From: an uncultured Gemmatimonadota bacterium
Lineage (GTDB): Bacteria; GCA-2686955
Direction of reading: 5' to 3'
DNA length: 64,000 nt
Assembly (NCBI GenBank): GCA_964490075.1
Contig: CAZBBK010000001.1
Span: forward strand, 124,001 to 188,000
Part shown: positions 1,355 to 26,383 of the stretch, piece by piece
Numbering within the stretch: the stretch's first letter is position 1
Layout: every line of letters begins with the position of its first letter
Notes under the pieces: model-generated
Databases searched by the model: none
What the model was told of the DNA's origin: nothing
What the model saw: the letters and a program-made list of their open reading frames with translations, nothing else
Made by a program: the position numbers and the translations under genes

Positions 1355-4300
1355 TCACTGCATGATCTCCAACTCGAAATCGTGCTGATCATAGACCACG
1401 CCGCCGACCGAGATCGACACCTGCACGCCGTAGAAGCCCGCGGGTGCACGCGAGTGCACCGGTCCCTCCACTCGCGCCGCATCGAGTCCCTGCGCGTCGA
1501 TATAGAGAGTGTCGAGGTTGGCCACGAAGCTCGGCCCATCATCCGGCAGCGAGACCAAGGTCTCGCGCACGATCGGCCCCTGGATCTGCAGATCGGGGTT
1601 GAAGACGTCGACCTGCATGCCGAACACCTCGCCGGCCTGAATCCACGTCGAGTCGGGCACCACCGTCAGCTCGAGGGTGTGGGTGAAGGGCAAGGCACCC
1701 AGATCCGCCACGCTGCCGTCGGCGTCGAGGGCGGAGCCCGGGTAGCCAGCGTCGATCATCGGCGAATGCGGGCTCAGCGCGAAGCTGGTATCGGCAAACT
1801 CGGGGTTCAGCTCCAGGTTGGATGGATCGGGAATCATGCCCGCCACCGACTCCGCTTCGTTGTTCCAGAAGTTGTTGTAGATCAGCACCGGCAAGGCGCT
1901 CTTGACTTCGAAGGCCGCACCGCTGCGGCCCTGCACCAGGATGTTGTTGGCCACCACCGCCTCGGCGGACTGCACCATGATCCCGGAGCCCTCGGCGGCC
2001 AGATTGCCGACCAGGGTGTTGTTGGCGATCAGCAGCTCGCCGCCGTCGGAGTAGCGCAACGCGCACCCACCGCCGCGACTGTCGTTGGCCAGATCGCTCG
2101 CCTCGTTGCCCACGAAGAGATTGGCGTAGAGCGTGCCGCCCACGTCGTCGCCGGTGGCGTAGAGCCCGCCGCCGTGGAAGGGCGTGGTGTTGGCATCGAA
2201 GCGGTTCAGGCGAATCGAAGGCGTCGCGCTCTGGACGTAGAGCCCTCCGCCGCCCGATCCGGTGGCCTCGTTGAGCAGGAACTCGTTCTCGAACACCGAT
2301 GCGGATCCGAGGGGATCCAGACCGTCGCGCACGATGGCCACCGCTCCGCCGGCGTGATCGGAGATGTTGTCTCGGAAGTGGTTGCCCTTCAGGTAGAGCG
2401 CGGCGTCGGTGGCCATCAGGGCGCCCCCTTCGAGCACCGCCTGGTTATCGATGAAGGTGTTGTTCATGATTCGGGCCGCGCCTCGGAGCACCGCGAGCGC
2501 ACCGCCGCCGTCGAGGGTCGCCATATTGTCGATGAAGTGACAGTTGATGATGGTCGGCGAGGCGCCATTGATCAGGATCGCCGCGCCCATGTCGGCCGTG
2601 TGGCCCTCGAAGCGGAAGCCGTCGACCGTAGCCGCCGCACTCTCCGCGTTGCCGATGGTCAGCACCGGTTGGCCGATGATGCCCCTCAACGCGGTGCTAT
2701 CGGGTCCGCCGCGCGCCACCAGTACGATGTCCTTGCCCTCGAAGTTGAAGGGTCCGGTGAAGGTGCCCGGCGCGACCAGCACCTGGTCGCCATCGAGGGC
2801 GCTTGCGACGGCGTCCTGGATCGTCGGGAACTCTGCCGACGGCACATCGAGGACCTGGCTGGAGGACATCGAAGCCTGGGGAGTGTTGCCGGCGAACCCG
2901 AGGTTGATCAGGCCACCGTTGGGCACCGGCTCGACCAGAGGATCGTTGTAGGGATTGATGCCACGGTCGATGCAGGGGCTGGAGGTCGAGTCGGCGACGA
3001 ACTCTTGCGCGTCATCGTGCCAGCTGCCGTTGGTCGACTGCAGGTGATAGTCGAAGGGCGTGCCGCCGACGAAGAGCGGATCTTCGCTCATGTCGCCGCC
3101 CCCCGGCGCCAGGCCTGCGTAATCGTGAGGTTCGTGTCCCCATACATCGTTGCGCCGCAGCTCGGCTGCCGACCCGGGCGCGGCGTAGATGCCCTCGGCG
3201 CCCTCATTGGCCGCCACGATCGTGTTGCGAATCGCCGGATAGCAGTCCCCGGTCAGGAAGAGCCCGGCTCCGCGTGCGGCGGCGTGGTTGTGGGCAACCG
3301 TCACGTTGACGAATTCCGGCTGGCCGCCGGCCACGTAGATGCCGCCACCGTCGCGATTGGACTGGTTGCCCGCCAACAGACAGCCACGCAGCTCGAGATC
3401 GGAGCCATCCACGACGTAGAGACCGCCGCCGCCGCCGTCATTGGCGATGTTGTCCAGGAAGCGACAGTTCTCAATGGTCGGCGCGCCGCCCAACACCGCC
3501 ACGCCGCCGCCCTGGGTGGCCAGGTTGTAACGGAACTCGCAAGCTTCGATCCGGATCTCGGCGTAGTCGAGCAGCAGCCCTCCGCCGCGGCTGCTGTTGC
3601 CACCTTCGAAGACCAGGCCGCTGACGCTGATCGACGGGTCGTTCACTCCCTGGATCCAGAGCAGAGGATCGCCCACCTGCCCGGGATCGCTCGGAGTGAT
3701 GACCACCTCTCCCTCACCGGCGTCGCCGACCAAGTTGATACCGACGCCGACCATCACCAGACGCTCTGCATAGGTCCCCGGGTGCACCAGAACCGTGTCT
3801 CCCTCGCCGACCGCGGCCAGGCCTTCGGCGATGGTCGGGTAGTCGTCGGGAACCTCGACCACCTCGCCGATACGCTGCACGAATTCGTAGGCGCCGATAT
3901 CGACACGATCACCTCCGCCCTCGGGCACGGGATCGCCCGGATCGCCGCGGTCGATCAGATTGGAGCCGGGCTGCAGACCGTAGAAGGGATCACTGTAGGT
4001 GTACTTTGGATCGCGTGACAATCGAGTATTGCTGTCGCCGAAGAGCAGGCCGCCCCAGTCGCCGCCGGGGGCGTTGGCGTAGCCGTTGCTGTGGGTGACG
4101 ATGGCCAGCGATCCGGGTGCTCCATAGACCCCGATGCCGTTGCTGGTGCTCGAGATCGAGCAGTTGCGCACGGTCGCCGCCGCGCCTCCGCCCACGTGAA
4201 TGCCGCCGCCGGCATTGAGCAGGCCGCTGTACTGGTCGTCGATGGTGCAGTTGAGAATGGTCGGGGCGGAGTCGGCTGCGTAGATTGCACCGCCCAGGCT

Positions 4301-20681: not shown

Positions 20682-22517
20682 ATGGGCAATGTCTCCCATC
20701 GGACGGCCGCGAGTTCGGTCGCCGCCGTGCTGCTTTCGATCTGCGCATCACCTGTCTCCGCGCCGGCTGCGACCAGCTCGCCGCGGGCACACCTGGTGCC
20801 GCCTCCTTCACTGGGTGCGGATAGCGCCGACGCGGGCGCGGCCTACTTCGGGCTGCCGCCGCTCGGCGATGTGCAGGTCGTCACCGGCGGCATCGACCGC
20901 GGCGGCGACTTCATGGCACCGACCGACTACCCGCAAGAGCGTCACGTCGTCTACAGCCCCTTCGGCGCGACCTACGGCGCGTTCTACGAGTGGAACGAAG
21001 CGGGCGACTTCATGATCGGCGCGCAGTACTGGGCCGGCGATGCCGGGTGGTCCGCCGCCAGCATCCCCTCGGAGCTGGGCGTGCAGATCGACGCCGGACG
21101 GCCGAGTGCGCACGAATCCGACCATGGAGTGATGGTTGCCTACCACGCCACCGTGAACGGCGTCGGTTACGACCTGTGGGTCAACAACTTCGATGCTCGC
21201 TCCGGAACCTGGGGCGAGAGCGTGCAGGTCAGCGCAGCTGGCGGCACCTTCGCGTTTCTCGAACGGGCCTCGGACGGCACCTGGATGATCGGGGCGACCG
21301 GGGCGCTGGGCGAGAAGAAAGTGTACGCACATACCTCGAACGACGACGGCGCGACTTGGAGCGCCAGTCTGGTAGCGGAGCTCACCGTCGACAACTGGAC
21401 CCTGGTCAGCGGCGCGGCCGATCCGGAGAACGGCGACCTGTACCTGGCCTATGGCGATGATGCCGACGGCGACGACATGGGTGATATCGTGCTCCACCGC
21501 TCCATCGACGGCGGCACCAGCTGGTCGTCCGGGGCCATCGTCGCACACGGCGTCTTCGGCGGTCAAAAGGTGGAGCCATCGCTGGTGGTCGACCGCAGCC
21601 ACCAGGTGCACCTGGTCTTTCAGTCCAACATCGTCGATGACTTCGCCGGAGGCGGACTGAGCGGTCTGGGAGTCGCGGGGATCATCGGCCCGCCGGAGTA
21701 CGCGTGCGGGCACTTCGACGGCGATCAGTGGATCGCGACCGAGAGCGGCGCCCTGCTCGACCGCGCGGAGCTGGCGGCGCTGCCCGACAGCTGCGGCCTC
21801 TCCCCCACCATCGACAACATCGCCACCGATCTGCTGAGCGGGATGCCGCAGCTCGGCATCTACCGCGGAGAGGCCGGCGACCGGCTCTTCGTGGCCTATG
21901 GTCAACCCTACATGGCGGTCGACGTCGACGACTCGTGGGAGATCTGCGGTCCCTTCCAGATCTTCATGCAAGAGCGCGACCTGGAGGACGGCGAGGGCTG
22001 GTCGTCGCGGAGCATGGTTTCCGCCATCTCCGAGCAAGCCGCCGACCAGGGCCGCAACGCGATCTACGTCAACACCACGCACGAAGTGCCCGGGATCGGA
22101 CCCGGTTTCTTGTGGTCGGAGATGGAGGACGCCAGGCCTCCGGCGGATGTGATGTTCGCTCGCCCAGTGGTCGCGGGACCGGCTCTGCAGGTCTCCCTCA
22201 ACGCGGGGGCGGAGCAGATCGGGCTCGGCGAGCTGCTGCCACTGGGCTTCCGGATCGTCAATCCGTGCTCCGACGCGCGCAGCTTCGAGGCCTGGGTCGA
22301 AGGCTTCGATCCGGGCGGGGCTCCCTATCCCGACAATCCCTTGTTCGGTCCCCTCTCGATCAGCCTGGCCGCGGGGGAGAGCGTGTCCGGCACCCGCTTC
22401 TACCGGGTGCCCCCCGATGCCGAGATCGGCGCTCCTCACCGCCTCTGTCTCTCGGTCGGCACCCATCCGGGCGAAGTGATCGACCGGAGCTGCGCGGCCT
22501 TCGAGGTCGTGCCATAG
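20682..22517 (+). CDS. Secreted Asp-box/BNR (sialidase-like beta-propeller) protein with C-terminal Ig-like domain
   Basis: Signal peptide; Asp-boxes TSNDDGATW and RSIDGGTSW. Confidence 0.75.
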   Translation: MGNVSHRTAASSVAAVLLSICASPVSAPAATSSPRAHLVPPPSLGADSADAGAAYFGLPPLGDVQVVTGGIDRGGDFMAPTDYPQERHVVYSPFGATYGAFYEWNEAGDFMIGAQYWAGDAGWSAASIPSELGVQIDAGRPSAHESDHGVMVAYHATVNGVGYDLWVNNFDARSGTWGESVQVSAAGGTFAFLERASDGTWMIGATGALGEKKVYAHTSNDDGATWSASLVAELTVDNWTLVSGAADPENGDLYLAYGDDADGDDMGDIVLHRSIDGGTSWSSGAIVAHGVFGGQKVEPSLVVDRSHQVHLVFQSNIVDDFAGGGLSGLGVAGIIGPPEYACGHFDGDQWIATESGALLDRAELAALPDSCGLSPTIDNIATDLLSGMPQLGIYRGEAGDRLFVAYGQPYMAVDVDDSWEICGPFQIFMQERDLEDGEGWSSRSMVSAISEQAADQGRNAIYVNTTHEVPGIGPGFLWSEMEDARPPADVMFARPVVAGPALQVSLNAGAEQIGLGELLPLGFRIVNPCSDARSFEAWVEGFDPGGAPYPDNPLFGPLSISLAAGESVSGTRFYRVPPDAEIGAPHRLCLSVGTHPGEVIDRSCAAFEVVP

Positions 22518-22607
22518 GATCCGCCGCCCCGGTGAGCACACCGGCGCCCGCGCCCGACCCCGCCTCGTCCATCCGAGGCACGGGTCAGGTGCGGGCGCCC
22601 TCGATGC

Positions 22608-22636
22608 TTGACTCAGGCTCTTCGGCCCCGTAGGAT
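22608..22636 (+). promoter_or_regulatory. Sigma70-type promoter
   Basis: TTGACT, 17-nt spacer, TAGGAT. Confidence 0.65.
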
Positions 22637-22639
22637 ATT

Positions 22640-22658
22640 GATATTGATCTTCATTCTC
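22640..22658. promoter_or_regulatory. Fur-family box
   Basis: GATATTGATCTTCATTCTC is a 15/19 match to GATAATGATAATCATTATC; AT-rich patch directly after the -10. Confidence 0.7.
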
Positions 22659-22690
22659 ATTTACCGCACCGCCTCGACCGGGAGCCCACC

Positions 22691-22927
22691 GTGCAAAAGC
22701 AGCATCGTCGCACCACCCTCACATCGACCCCCACCTACCGAATCGACCGCTGCAGCTGCGGCCGCGTCAACCTGGTGGTAGGCGAATCGACCCTCTCGAT
22801 GTGCCCGCATCTGCTCGCCCGCCTGCGCAACGATCTATCGGTGGCGATCCACGAGAACCGCCAGGCTTCCGGCGATGCCGACCCGCTCGATCTGCCCGTG
22901 GATGGGCACATGTTCAGCCTCAACTGA
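22691..22927 (+). CDS. Small hypothetical protein with CxCG motif
   Basis: GGGAG RBS, GTG start, 78 aa, IDRCSCGRVNL..G..TL. Confidence 0.6.
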   Translation: MQKQHRRTTLTSTPTYRIDRCSCGRVNLVVGESTLSMCPHLLARLRNDLSVAIHENRQASGDADPLDLPVDGHMFSLN

Positions 22928-23030
22928 TCGAAGGGCGAATTCCGCTGCGCCGTCGCGATCGGGTGAGATAGACTTGTAGGTTCCGATGAGCAAGGGTCAT
23001 CCGAGTCCACCAGATCGACGACAAGGCGCG

Positions 23031-23171
23031 ATGAGCATCCTCACTCCGATCCTGATACTGGCGGCGTGGCTGGTTCTGAACCGCTACGTGCTTCCGAAGC
23101 TCGGCGTCCCCACCTGAGCGGTCCCCCAGAGCCCTCCGGCGGAGGGCACGCGCAAGAGCGACTGCCGGTAG
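23031..23171 (+). CDS. Small single-TM protein, candidate selenoprotein (in-frame UGA at 23115-23117)
   Basis: MSILTPILILAAWLVLNRYVLPKLGVPT-U-AVPQSPPAEGTRKSDCR*; SECIS-like hairpin at 23131-23147; not in the ORF track. Confidence 0.6.
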
Positions 23172-23181
23172 GAATCCACCC

Positions 23182-23388
23182 ATGCCGATCTTTGATTTTC
23201 GCTGCAAGCAGTGCGGAACGACCTTCGAGGAGCTGCTCCGAAGCGCGGCGGACGATGCCGCCATCGTCTGCCCGGGCTGCGGGTCAGGGGAGAGCGAACG
23301 CCTGATCGGCGCGCCCAACGTGTTGGGCTCGTCGGGCGGCGTCGGTGGCGGCGGCTGCGCGGCCCCACCCGGCGGCGGCTTCACCTGA
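23182..23388 (+). CDS. FmdB-family zinc-ribbon protein; possible Sec at the terminal UGA (read-through to 23397)
   Basis: MPIFDFRCKQCG..FE.L...CPGCGS; Gly-rich tail CAAPPGGGFT-UGA; hairpin at 23406-23419. Confidence 0.85.
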   Translation: MPIFDFRCKQCGTTFEELLRSAADDAAIVCPGCGSGESERLIGAPNVLGSSGGVGGGGCAAPPGGGFT

Positions 23389-23431
23389 GCGGCCTGATTC
23401 GTGCGGCGCCGGTCGGCGCTCTTCTACATCG

Positions 23432-26383
23432 TCAGCTCAGCGCGCGCCGCGCCAGCGCTTCGACCTCGGCCGGAGAGGCGACGCGTAGCAGCGCCCCGAG
23501 GGTGATCAACGTACGGTGGAAGCTCGCGCCAGGCAGCGCCGCGGCGGCGATCTCGATCCAGTCCCCCGGCCCGATCCGGCCCAGCGCCCAGACCGCCTCG
23601 GAGCGCAGCTCGTCGACCACGACCGGATCGCCGGCGATGCGCGCCAGGAGCGGCATGGAGGGGACGTCGCGCAGCACCCCCAGGGTCTCGATGACCCAGC
23701 GCATGTTGCGCTGTCCCATCCAGGAATCGTCGCCCTGCTCCAGGTAGTCATCGAGCAGCACGCCCAGTCGCGGCGTGACGTCGTCCGCGCCGGCGCGCGC
23801 CAGCGATACCAGCATCGCGACCTGCAGTTCTGGATCGGCGACCTCGCGCTCCAAGGCAGTGCGCAACGCAGCGCGCACCGCGGGGTCGGGGAAGCGCCAG
23901 AGGTGCAGCGCGGCGCTCAGGCGCTGCTCGGACGCCGGTGCGGCCAGCAGCTCGAGCAGCCATGGTATGTCCGCGGGAGCGACCAGGTGCGACTGGGCGG
24001 CGACCAGGGCGGCGAGCTCGTCGCGGTCCTCCGGGAGCGGCGCGGCGAAGAGCGCATCGTGGGCGGTCTGGCCACCGATCGTGGCCAGGGTGGCGAAAGC
24101 ACTGCGGCGCAGCGTGGGCTTGGCGCTGCCGAGATGGCCGGCGATGCGGCTCACCAGGGCGGGCGGCGGCGGCGTGGCGGCCGCGTGCCTGAGTGAGGCC
24201 GTGGCGCTCGTCGTCGCCGCGCGTGGATCGGCCGGAATCGGCACCGCGACCCAGGGCAAGCGCCCAGGGCGCGCGGCGATCGTCGCCGGCTGGCCCGGCA
24301 GCACGCCAGAATGGGGGCGCAGCAGGCGGGTGGCGGACCACATGGCGGCACGCGCCACGCGGGCATCAGGGTGCCCGACCAGGCCGATCAGCAGGTCGAG
24401 CAGGACGGAGGTCGATGCGGTGCCGCCGGGTGCCAGGGCGGCGGGCTCCGGCGTGCCCAGATCGCCGAGCGCCACCACGCAAGCCACCAGCAAAGCCACG
24501 GGCCGATCGGACGGCGCATCCGCCAGTTCGGCCGCCAGGTCGAAGAGCGCCGGCCGCGCCCGGACCTCGCATAGCTCGCCGAGGGCCGCCACGATGGCGC
24601 GCCGGCAGCCGGGTTCCTCCTCGGCCAGCCCCTCCAGCAGGAGCGGCCCCAGCTCCACCAGGCCGAGCCGCCCGGCCGCCTCGATCGCCTCCCGCCGCAC
24701 CGCCGCCGATCGGTGCCGCACCCCAGCGCGCACCAGGTCGACGCAGCTCGAGTCCCCACCGACCGCCAGCCCCCGCTGAATGGCGGCGAGCACCAGCGCG
24801 TCCTCCTCGAGCTCCCAGCCGCGCCGCAGCAGCGGCGCCCCCTCCGGATCCCGCGCCCAGCTCCGATGCACCTCGGCGCGCGCCAGCGGCTCCGCGCGCT
24901 CCCGCAGTCCCTCCGGGTCGCGCAGATGGTCCTGCTCGAGACCGTCGAGGGCGCGCGCCAGCCGCTCCAGGCGTGCACCGGTGCCGGTGTCGGCGGCAGC
25001 CGCCGAGGATGGCGGAGGCGGTGCGTCGAGGCGGGCCAGCAGCGGCTCCACGAAGGCACCGGCCGCTTCGCCGAAGTAGGCGTAGCCAAAGGTCGTGAGG
25101 TGCACATGATCGGCGAAGAGCGCACTGCCGTAGGGGTCGCCCAGCTCGCGCTCCGCGGCGGCGAGACAGAGCGGCATGTCCAGGATCGGAATCGCCGCCA
25201 CTCCGGCGATCCCCCGCAAGAGCGCGTTCTTCTCCGCCGTCGAGCGTTCCGCGTCGAGCCGCCGCCGCGCCTGGCGGTCGCACGCACGTGCCCCCCGGTG
25301 ATCGCCCAGCGCCTCCAGACAACGCGCCTCCCAGAAGAGCGCCGGCGATCCGACCGGCAGATCGCGGCGCGCGGCCCGCACCAAAGCCAGCGCCTGCTCG
25401 GCCCGCCCCTCCTCGAGCTCGTTGAGCCCACGGGCCAGAGTCAAGAGCCCCTCCCCGGGGCCCAGCGGGGCCTTTTCGTCCGCCCCGACCACCCGGTAGG
25501 GCGTCCCCCAGAACAGGTCGTTGGTGGGGCGCGGCAGCAGATCGGGCCAGGCTGGGAAGTGCCCGCCCTTGTGGACCGGGTTCTCGGTCACCAGCTCCAA
25601 GAGGACCAGTGGCACCTCGCTCTCCCGCGCCATCCCGACGATCGAGACCAGGTTGCGCCGGTAGTTGTCGAGCACCGATCCGAGCGGCGGGCGAAGGACC
25701 GGCGACTGCGGCGGCGCCAGCATCGGCCGCTGCCGCATGTCCAGATCCATGGGCGATACCGCCCGCCGCGGCGCCAGCTCCGGCAGCAGCGCCCGCGCCC
25801 CCCAGCGCATCAGCCCGACCGCACGGCTGCCGCGCAGCGCCGCCTGCGTCGCCAGTACGCCGCTCGAGCGCTCCAGGAGCGGCCGGTAGAAGTTCTGCTC
25901 GAGCGCCTCGTTGTGTCCGGTCGACACGACCAACAGATCGGGCCCGTAACCCAGCACCTCGCGCTCCATGAAGAGCAGCCGCGAAGTGCCCATCCCTTTG
26001 TAGCCGGCGCCGACCACCTCCACCCTCCCGCCCAGTCCCAGGTCGTCCACCAGGAAGCGCTCGAAGAAGCCGGGGTAGGGCGAGGCGGTGACCGATCCGC
26101 CGAGGCAGAAGAGGCGCAGCCGGTCCTCGCGGGGGCGCAGCGCGAAGCGTTCCTCGAGCATCGTGCTGCCCAGCCCGCCCTGGCTCCGCATCCAACCCGC
26201 GCTCTCCGGGTCCCGCTCGAAGAAGGTCGCCAGACCGAAGAAGCCGAAGAAGGGGTCGGAGTGCACCTCCTCCAGGGCCAGCTCGCGGGTCACCAGGCGA
26301 GCCGCCCCTTCGATCGCCGCCAGCAGGGCCAGCACCACCGCAGCGCCGAGCAGCATCTTGCGCACCAGGAGTCGTGGGTTCAC
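23432..26383 (-). CDS. Membrane-anchored SGNH/GDSL hydrolase-like protein with TPR-like segment and C-terminal HEAT repeats
   Basis: N-terminal TM + EGAAR, FCLGGSVT, GHNE, FADHVHLT; repeated VRxxAxxALG.L motifs. Confidence 0.75.
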   Translation of the reverse strand: MNPRLLVRKMLLGAAVVLALLAAIEGAARLVTRELALEEVHSDPFFGFFGLATFFERDPESAGWMRSQGGLGSTMLEERFALRPREDRLRLFCLGGSVTASPYPGFFERFLVDDLGLGGRVEVVGAGYKGMGTSRLLFMEREVLGYGPDLLVVSTGHNEALEQNFYRPLLERSSGVLATQAALRGSRAVGLMRWGARALLPELAPRRAVSPMDLDMRQRPMLAPPQSPVLRPPLGSVLDNYRRNLVSIVGMARESEVPLVLLELVTENPVHKGGHFPAWPDLLPRPTNDLFWGTPYRVVGADEKAPLGPGEGLLTLARGLNELEEGRAEQALALVRAARRDLPVGSPALFWEARCLEALGDHRGARACDRQARRRLDAERSTAEKNALLRGIAGVAAIPILDMPLCLAAAERELGDPYGSALFADHVHLTTFGYAYFGEAAGAFVEPLLARLDAPPPPSSAAAADTGTGARLERLARALDGLEQDHLRDPEGLRERAEPLARAEVHRSWARDPEGAPLLRRGWELEEDALVLAAIQRGLAVGGDSSCVDLVRAGVRHRSAAVRREAIEAAGRLGLVELGPLLLEGLAEEEPGCRRAIVAALGELCEVRARPALFDLAAELADAPSDRPVALLVACVVALGDLGTPEPAALAPGGTASTSVLLDLLIGLVGHPDARVARAAMWSATRLLRPHSGVLPGQPATIAARPGRLPWVAVPIPADPRAATTSATASLRHAAATPPPPALVSRIAGHLGSAKPTLRRSAFATLATIGGQTAHDALFAAPLPEDRDELAALVAAQSHLVAPADIPWLLELLAAPASEQRLSAALHLWRFPDPAVRAALRTALEREVADPELQVAMLVSLARAGADDVTPRLGVLLDDYLEQGDDSWMGQRNMRWVIETLGVLRDVPSMPLLARIAGDPVVVDELRSEAVWALGRIGPGDWIEIAAAALPGASFHRTLITLGALLRVASPAEVEALARRALS

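Follow-up and report, generated by a model that had tools for sequence, protein, structure and literature searches.

Whether a TGA codon near the end of a very small gene always means the end of translation is the question raised by a locus of 0.8 kb in a stretch of 64,000 nucleotides (nt) from an uncultured Gemmatimonadota bacterium (assembly GCA_964490075.1, contig CAZBBK010000001.1, positions 124,001 to 188,000; this whole stretch is hereafter called the window). Three small open reading frames (ORFs) are found there on the plus strand, and the second and the third of them, named ORF B and ORF C, each run into a TGA behind which the same frame continues to another stop. Comparison with relatives in other genomes and metagenomes makes it highly likely that annotation has missed two selenoprotein genes here, ORF B and ORF C, in which this UGA would be read as selenocysteine (Sec, written U in protein sequences), and that they form a conserved pair across many bacterial phyla. 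The features on which this reading is built, among them hairpins resembling the selenocysteine insertion sequence (SECIS), are the following.

23031-23171, plus strand: ORF B, 46 amino acids (aa), a single-helix membrane selenoprotein candidate, with its TAG end at 23169-23171
23115-23117, plus strand: candidate Sec29 UGA of ORF B, in the context Pro-Thr-Sec-Ala-Val-Pro
23131-23147, plus strand: SECIS-like hairpin of ORF B, GCCCTCC-GGC-GGAGGGC, with a 7-bp stem
23182-23397, plus strand: ORF C, an FmdB-type zinc ribbon, 71 aa with readthrough, with its stop TGA at 23395-23397
23386-23388, plus strand: candidate Sec69 UGA of ORF C
23405-23420, plus strand: SECIS-like hairpin of ORF C, GGCGCC-GGTC-GGCGCT, in the 3' untranslated region (UTR)

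Selenocysteine decoding is possible in this genome, which has a size of 5.70 Mb and a GC content of 68.4%. It encodes SelB (345.6 bits), SelA (505.9 bits) and SelD (317.9 bits), all above their curated cut-offs, and carries a tRNA-SeC with the anticodon tca; the SelD gene has one in-frame TGA itself (...GG-U-ARK). A reassigned genetic code is not the explanation, since TGA is the normal main stop and ends 1870 of the 3005 likely genes. The same machinery accompanies ORF B elsewhere: of the other host genomes with a TGA-type ORF B, all 10 that were tested have a SelB above the cut-off, as compared with 2 of 14 control genomes, a test that covers genome hosts, with the related genome G003 and the metagenomic contigs lying outside it. 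The sequence of the locus itself is identical in contigs of four DNA runs, which belong to one marine study and are not independent; one of them may be the source.

ORF B, up to its TGA, is a hydrophobic micro-ORF that ends in ...LPKLGVPT-TGA and has an alternative in-frame start at 22986. When read through, it gives a product of 46 aa that continues as ...PT-U-AVPQSPPAEGTRKSDCR before the TAG. The gene occurs in a single copy in the genome, matched through one TGA, and is kept in two of the three other genomes of the same family (G001 and G003). In the alignment of these three genomes, synonymous third-base changes are seen upstream, the surroundings of the TGA are invariant, and the frame stays open for 17-18 codons. 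By using one genome per species, a wider scan returned 18 loci, made up of 11 TGA-type ORF B genes, five long proteins and two unclear cases. The 11 further TGA-type loci span at least seven phylum-level labels, with Gemmatimonadota, Thermoanaerobaculia, Calditrichaeota, delta-proteobacteria / Thermodesulfobacteriota, Moduliflexus / KSB3 and Acidobacteria among the taxa, and all 11 read ...RY[VL]LPKLGVxT-TGA with an open frame behind the TGA. Most of them have a Cys five residues past the TGA, as in T-U-MSAS-C. Altogether, an in-frame U-x4-C or U-AVP is kept at 12 of 12 genome loci and at eight more metagenomic loci, and the AVP is retained in all seven loci of the PT-U-AVP subtype, to which the gene of the window belongs. 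The same metagenome also holds a second ORF B-like gene from another organism, with two differences over 37 nt (window positions 23089-23125) and then a different stem behind its TGA, AGGCC-GGTC-GGCCT.

Through an exhaustive profile search, 850 representatives of the ORF B family were collected at E<=1e-3, and the residues were counted in the best 150. A Cys stands at the position of the TGA in 88 of these 150, and in 74 of the 88 it opens a CxxxxC motif; P0111 is a Cys form of the window's own subtype (PT-C-AVPQ). At the level of alignment ORF B thus displays the classical Sec/Cys signature, its putative Sec codon being aligned with the first Cys of a conserved CxxxxC. Another 37 of the best 150 end at the Thr just before the TGA. 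The remaining forms at the Sec position include Trp in 17 and Gly in two, every one of the 17 Trp forms having a Cys at +5, and they are apparently a recurring annotation artefact in which gene callers translate the TGA under a code that treats it as sense. The 12 TGA forms and eight stand-alone Cys forms had no match among the Pfam and NCBIfam models, and the sources that name a protein of this family call it a 'hypothetical protein'. A ninth Cys form, P0088, matches thioredoxin models only: in this protein of 208 aa, ORF B is fused in frame to a canonical thioredoxin (TIGR01068, 105.7 bits), a fusion that hints at joint action of the two on one side of the membrane.

As for the origin of ORF B, the five long proteins of the scan share its helix-end motif, and the four that were examined (loci L031, L032, L035 and L036) are DoxX/DoxD-like. 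The last helix of DoxX/DoxD proteins (PF07681, PF04173) ends in ...DRYLLPKLGVPW, which is nearly the ORF B motif ...NRYVLPKLGVPT; the likeness is confined to that helix. Unlike ORF B, these are multi-pass proteins of 250-540 aa with neither TGA nor Cys past the motif, and neither PF07681 nor PF04173 matches any of the 12 ORF B proteins. The last DoxX/DoxD helix may be the origin of ORF B, or ORF B may mimic it.

ORF C is of a different kind. Up to its first TGA it covers 23182-23388 and ends in ...GGGFT-TGA, and it belongs to the FmdB family by both available models (PF09723, E=3e-16, 59.6 bits against a cut-off of 34.4; TIGR02605, E=8e-16, 57.9 bits against a cut-off of 31.3). The N-terminal ribbon has its CxxC pairs at Cys8, 11, 30 and 33, and readthrough would add to the Gly-rich tail a very short end, Cys59-AAPPGGG-F-T-U-A-A, before the second TGA. 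The genome has this one Sec-type ORF C together with two FmdB paralogues without an in-frame TGA. At the five other genome loci where an FmdB gene lies beside ORF B, the ends read GFT-U-A, GFR-U-AG, GFG-U-GI, KFT-U-A and GFG-U-G. Among the best 120 database matches to ORF C, 109 end in F[TSGRV], so the stop falls at one conserved place.

The choice of stop codon at that place was examined in the DNA of 80 metagenomic FmdB loci, 78 of them complete, of which 44 end in F[TSGRV] and 34 do not. The first stop is TGA in 44 of 44 loci of the F[TSGRV] class and in 19 of the 34 others (Fisher p=4e-7); TAG and TAA are absent from the former and make up 11 and 4, respectively, of the latter. The TGA is kept even where the F[TSGRV] loci have a GC content of 44-50%. 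A second stop follows one or two codons on in 43 of the 44, and these second stops are mixed (TGA 21, TAG 14, TAA 9). The case for Sec in ORF C is made by this codon choice, the conserved short extension, the hairpin and the neighbours, and on these grounds the residue is very probably Sec. Five loci of the other class (L045, L066, L072, L080 and L098) and the additional locus L128, with the tails GTPT, GPIT, RGLG, SGAT, RGGG and GHS, also have a TGA stop, a second stop two or three codons on and a hairpin, and are probably to be counted among the variants of the C-terminal Sec form.

If the two TGAs are recoded, a bacterial SECIS would be expected behind each. According to PMC13188914, such an element has a small apical loop with a G in its first two positions, to which a G or U is often the next base, and lies 16-37 nt from the UGA. 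The hairpins with a G in the loop that the first-pass annotation had placed at a similar distance behind each UGA are there, at 23131-23147 and 23405-23420. That of ORF B, with the loop GGC starting 23 nt past the U of the UGA, is inside the coding extension, while that of ORF C has five Watson-Crick pairs and one G-U pair with the loop GGTC starting 25 nt past the U; both fit this model. The SECIS of E. coli fdhF also has the loop GGUC. A difference is that the element of ORF C is non-coding, and its binding by SelB is putative. In the mechanism proposed here, the stem-loop behind each first UGA, its apical loop beginning with G(G/U) 23-25 nt past the UGA, would recruit SelB carrying Sec-tRNA(Sec), and Sec would be inserted instead of termination. 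The product of ORF B would be a 46-residue single-pass membrane protein with Sec29 just past the helix, at the position of the first Cys of CxxxxC, and that of ORF C a 71-residue FmdB zinc ribbon whose SECIS lies entirely behind the real stop.

The hairpins recur in the relatives. By requiring a stem of at least 5 bp and a G in the first two loop positions, in a per-sequence scan with the genome as background, a hairpin is found at 12 of 12 TGA loci of ORF B, with the loop starting 20-26 nt from the U of the UGA and with stems that differ between lineages. For ORF C, it is found at 6 of 6 genome loci and at 40 of 44 metagenomic F[TSGRV] loci, in comparison with 10 of 33 other FmdB loci. The loops at the five other genome copies of ORF C are GGGC, GTG, CGTGC, GTC and GCGC; in the 40 metagenomic hairpins of the ORF C type, GGTC (11), GTC (10) and GGTCG (6) account together for 27, and CGTGA for five. 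In the alignment of the three Gemmatimonadota loci, which had been made without regard to the hairpin, two pairs of the ORF B stem have compensatory changes; counting pairs over these 3 sequences only gives three compensatory pairs, at a covariation score that 28 of 500 shuffles reach. RNAalifold predicts no pairs on an ungapped, TGA-anchored alignment of 12 sequences, since the place of the hairpin shifts by a few bases from phylum to phylum.

A simpler explanation would hold that both TGAs are ordinary stops, that the hairpins are terminators or elements of mRNA stability, and that the 11-mer which surrounds both TGAs, considered below, is a coincidence. TGA is indeed the commonest stop of the genome, 407 of its 1868 ordinary TGA stops (21.8%) pass the same hairpin test, the hairpin of ORF C stands between convergent genes, and the 11-mer, with nine sites, is about as frequent genome-wide as chance allows. 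What this explanation leaves without a cause is the Cys that replaces the TGA in more than half of the ORF B relatives counted, with the motif continuing in frame, the exclusive use of TGA in the F[TSGRV] class where 15 of the 34 other loci use TAG or TAA, its persistence at moderate GC content, and the second stop at most two codons on. SelB in every other host genome tested also speaks against it. With regard to termination, the hairpin of ORF B lies inside the operon, before ORF C; no T-run terminator was detected in the window region scanned around the locus; and in G001 a separate T-run terminator follows the hairpin of ORF C. Two ordinary stops are therefore considered very improbable. 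The recoding that the first-pass annotation had suggested at both UGAs is instead supported by the Sec/Cys pair in ORF B, by the TGA choice and short extension in ORF C, and by the hairpins, and its expectation that standard annotation would truncate these genes is borne out by the relatives that stop just before the TGA (37 of 150 for ORF B and 109 of 120 for ORF C).

Several points nevertheless weigh against two selenoprotein genes in a conserved pair. The hairpin criterion is loose, as the share of ordinary stops that pass it shows, and the hairpin of ORF C, given its position between convergent genes, could be a terminator or double as one. The ORF B subtype of the window is without the second Cys of the motif; a Cys lies 16 residues on in the window and in G001, and there is none in G003. 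Among the 120 proteins and 78 loci examined for ORF C, no homologue has a Cys at the exact Sec position, so that only ORF B passes the classic test of Sec/Cys pairs; ordinary FmdB tails end in Cys pairs, such as ...C-x4-C-G-L-N, whose alignment with the Sec of ORF C is not compelling. In G003, ORF C (locus L014, about 1455-1530, minus strand; alignment columns 297-439) has an internal deletion of 149 nt that puts it out of frame, although the start, the GGCTTCACCTGAGCGG end and the GGTC-loop hairpin are kept. This copy is either a pseudogene or an assembly error, and thus either the pair is dispensable or the assembly is faulty. The related sequences are not independent, so that the p-values overstate the case. 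Finally, neither ArsR nor thioredoxin is found near the locus in the window, and the functional model presented below draws on gene neighbourhood only.

The feature in which the first-pass annotation had seen a shared recoding signal is the exact 11-mer CACCTGAGCGG. Both copies are confirmed, at 23111-23121 and 23382-23392, 271 nt apart, each spanning the terminal TGA of a small ORF; in the window, two copies compare with 0.08 expected, and none of 100 shuffles reached two. Such an 11-mer might act as a dedicated recoding signal of both genes, beyond the hairpins. In favour of this, both copies fall on a Sec-candidate UGA, and the worry that the 11-mer might simply be common at ordinary stops has no basis, the context ACC-TGA-GCGG being found at 0 of 1868 TGA stops of likely genes. 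Moreover, the sequence CCCACCTGAGCGGTyCCC around the UGA of ORF B is invariant in the three related genomes while nearby synonymous sites vary, the residue before Sec is Thr in 12 of 12 ORF B genes, and the residue after it is Ala in 30 of 44 ORF C-type genes. On the other hand, the 11-mer has nine sites in the whole genome, counting both strands, close to the expectation from composition (about seven if the window rate is scaled up), and the other seven show no pattern of lying at ORF ends. The other probable Sec codons of the genome are without it: SelD has GGC-TGA-GCC, and three ResA-like UxxC genes have TGG-TGA-CCG and ACC-TGA-GGC. In ORF B genes of other phyla the TGA is followed by ATG, CTC, TTA or GTG, and ORF C of G001 reads TGA-GCA-TAG. 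The identity comes down to a Thr-Sec-Ala peptide that each family has for itself, encoded by favoured GC-rich codons, and this, on the comparisons made, is what it is taken to be, rather than a general recoding signal. The shared signal proposed earlier is accordingly not borne out, and a role of the 11-mer beyond that peptide is judged improbable.

The ResA-like genes just mentioned come from a genome-wide scan for in-frame TGAs by codon-position GC, which gave 460 candidates, mostly noise, and of which only the few recognisable UxxC genes were used. Probable Sec genes of this kind lie at C1:204714 and C1:214342 (outside the window), C77:19006 and C68:13644 (loci L123-L125); they are large and secreted-looking, with a ResA/TlpA-like domain and the motif SW-U-PxC or T-U-GGC, and their family matches are below the curated cut-offs. 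Their SECIS-like hairpins have stems of 8, 6 or 7 bp and the same geometry as those of ORF B and ORF C, with the loops GGT, GGC or AGTTG starting at 19-20 nt. Another gene, at C4:92299 (locus L126), has an in-frame TGA (…VDT-U-SHFW…) and the hairpin GCGCAC-GGTC-GTGCGC in an open frame of about 890 codons; the 345 residues around its TGA have no NCBIfam match, and it may be another unrecognised selenoprotein.

The two selenoprotein candidates of the window also belong together. An ORF C-type gene is found within 1.5 kb at 9 of the 12 ORF B loci, one of these copies being the degraded one of G003, and of the other three genomes, two carry an ORF C-type gene at another place. Looked at from the other side, ORF B stands just upstream of ORF C at 8 of 44 Sec-type FmdB loci and at 0 of 36 others, and four of these eight are of the PT-U-AVP subtype. 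The genes around the pair were counted: at nine ORF B loci, thioredoxin was found five times, ArsR three times, and DsbD_TM and HMA once each; at 22 ORF C loci, ArsR three times, DUF302 four times, thioredoxin and DsbD_TM once each, and efflux components five times. Two loci have the order arsR - C - B - thioredoxin. These contexts in other phyla fit the metal- or redox-related module that had been suggested for the locus from its sequence.

Based on these neighbours, a membrane-proximal thiol/selenol relay may be outlined, in which ORF B and ORF C would pass on either redox equivalents or a soft metal or metalloid, and thioredoxin would recycle the two proteins. Arg and Lys follow the helix of ORF B and its partners are of cytoplasmic types, which suggests an N-out / C-in orientation; Sec29 would then be at the inner membrane face. 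The Gly-rich tail of ORF C would act as a mobile arm that carries a Cys...Sec pair. Conceivable substrates are a disulfide or peroxide, a chalcogen oxyanion, and a soft metal or metalloid; the ArsR, HMA, DUF302 and efflux contexts speak somewhat more for the last of these. Such a relay between ORF B and ORF C with thioredoxin is a tentative model. In its most specific form, the Cys...Phe-Thr-Sec arm of ORF C and the Sec of ORF B would meet at the inner membrane face and exchange either a selenenylsulfide or diselenide or a bound soft metal or metalloid, thioredoxin would reset the system, and the shared Thr-Sec(-Ala) would reflect a common partner or chemistry, not chance; this selenium relay, under ArsR control in most phyla, is a rather speculative proposal. 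The pair would be under an ArsR-type regulator in most lineages, and in the window behind a lone promoter with an AT-rich operator.

The tail of ORF C admits a different use as well. The description of TIGR02605 likens the tails of FmdB proteins to some bacteriocin precursors. A 'selenobacteriocin' family, TIGR04081, appears in a 2026 review. On this account, ORF C would be a precursor similar to those of ribosomally synthesized and post-translationally modified peptides (RiPPs), and its Gly/Cys/Sec tail would be a substrate, not a redox or metal arm. However, neither maturation enzymes nor a transporter nor immunity genes were seen at the 22 ORF C loci and nine ORF B loci scanned, where thioredoxin, ArsR, DUF302 and efflux parts are what recurs; and the N-terminal zinc ribbon, being a folded domain, differs from a typical leader peptide. 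A precursor role is for these reasons extremely unlikely.

What remains to be placed is the upstream part of the locus. The first-pass annotation had listed a promoter, a Fur-like box and a CxCG protein ahead of the transmembrane micro-protein and the zinc ribbon, and all of these elements are found, with the genes on the plus strand. The upstream features are as follows.

22608-22636, plus strand: promoter-like site TTGACT-17-TAGGAT (sigma-70-like), a consensus match only
22634-22658, no strand assigned: AT-rich box of hexamer repeats (Fur-like), which overlaps the -10 element and extends just downstream of it
22691-22927, plus strand: ORF A, 78 aa, an orphan with an ordinary TGA stop

ORF A has Cys21, Cys23 and Cys38, contains C-S-C-G, and shows a codon-position GC of 0.65/0.47/0.81, like real genes. 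No family was found for it, its only database match is itself, and its Atlas scores are below 0.9. In the two related genomes G001 and G003 it is not beside ORF B, and the box is absent there too. The earlier proposal of three genes with a common UGA context holds for ORF B and ORF C and fails for ORF A, whose TGA has neither the 11-mer nor a SECIS-like hairpin behind it; the feature is thus common to two genes, not three. ORF A is an orphan outside the conserved unit, without a Sec signature. The genes flanking the locus are unrelated to it, with a BNR-repeat protein upstream, a convergent HEAT/GDSL protein of 983 aa ending at 23432 downstream, and housekeeping genes farther out.

The arrangement of these elements would also suit an iron-responsive, Fur-repressed operon, whose single transcript would run from the promoter at 22608 through ORF A, ORF B and ORF C. 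This promoter-like site is the only one in 22450-23500 (shuffle mean 0.1), the box overlaps and follows its -10 element, and no terminator-like site lies between ORF A and ORF B. Against the E. coli Fur consensus, the box matches 14 of 19 positions at 22634 and 15 of 19 at 22640, and the 19-mer at 22640 is the joint best match to it in the 5.7 Mb genome, which has one Fur-family gene. However, the box is the sole element of its kind: it is the only genome site with at least 14/15 on a three-hexamer NAT[AT][AT]T model, and the region upstream of the Fur-family gene itself has no such box. For this reason the putative Fur label is backed by no regulon. The Fur family also contains sensors of peroxide, of zinc and of other kinds, and a role of iron does not follow from the label. 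At the ORF B-ORF C loci of the relatives both ORF A and the box are absent, and in other phyla the neighbour is of the ArsR type. Taken together, an iron-responsive operon of all three genes seems doubtful. As an observation in its own right, this genome of 68% GC has no second strongly AT-rich element of hexamer repeats, and any protein binding the box would have one target.

With regard to known systems, selenoproteins of the FmdB family with a CxxU motif were predicted from Global Ocean Sampling reads (Zhang and Gladyshev, 2008, PMC2398784), and selenoprotein forms of TIGR02605 are given as U/CxxU or UxxU in PMC9312934 and PMC13188914. The family (TIGR02605 / PF09723) and the decoding by UGA and bacterial SECIS would be the same as in ORF C. 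The difference lies in the place of the Sec, which for the Global Ocean Sampling proteins is taken from the motif names alone: in ORF C the CxxC pairs of the ribbon are all Cys, and the Sec, residue 69 of 71, is in a C-x(5-9)-F-[TSG]-U-x(1,2) tail. ORF C is thus neither CxxU nor UxxU, as Sec69 follows Gly-Phe-Thr and the nearest Cys is 10 residues upstream.

Families with a C-terminal Sec are listed in the 2026 review, namely UXX-star 1 (NF041114), UXX-star 2 (NF041211, GxGU) and KCU-star/DUF466 (NF033934), and they resemble ORF C in having the Sec one to three residues from the end. In such proteins the Sec is so near the end that gene callers lose few residues, and the SECIS must sit in the 3' UTR. 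Unlike them, ORF C is a zinc-ribbon protein, and their NCBIfam models do not match: NF041211, NF041114 and NF033934 gave no match at E<=1 for five ORF C-type and two ORF B proteins, nor for the 12 ORF B proteins. None of the NCBIfam selenoprotein models, including NF041197 (dual-CXXC) and NF045695 (TsoA), matched either, the best being 13.9 bits for NF041197 in one ORF C relative, with a cut-off of 40. In the part of its table covered here, a 2026 inventory of 119 families has no UxxxxC membrane micro-protein and no C-terminal FmdB form, and the BSepDB paper has no occurrence of 'FmdB' or 'zinc'. The ORF B family and the C-terminal-Sec form of FmdB are therefore regarded, provisionally and within the portions of these sources covered, as uncatalogued.

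By way of analogy only, mammalian thioredoxin reductase has a C-terminal redox arm, Gly-Cys-Sec-Gly, and mercury resistance uses a chain of Cys pairs that hand the metal from MerT/MerP to MerA. The likeness consists of a flexible Cys/Sec tail, a small membrane protein with a reactive pair, and the company of thioredoxin and metal-sensing regulators. In contrast, there is no sequence relationship, and the loci contain no reductase or Mer gene.

The outcome of this analysis concerns first how such genes are seen. Both proteins are cut in the databases exactly at the presumed reactive residue, which would give any functional or structural work on them a wrong sequence to begin with. ORF B would add a selenoprotein family that has a large Cys-containing sister group and no Pfam or NCBIfam model, and ORF C would add a new Sec position to FmdB, a family of unassigned function, for which the recurrent arrangement of ArsR, ORF C, ORF B and thioredoxin offers a testable handle. 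The pair would also provide a natural bacterial SECIS working from the 3' UTR, useful to predictors that expect the element in the coding sequence. If the relay is true, it would represent a new stress-response system made of two proteins of fewer than 75 residues, both truncated by annotation at the Sec codon.

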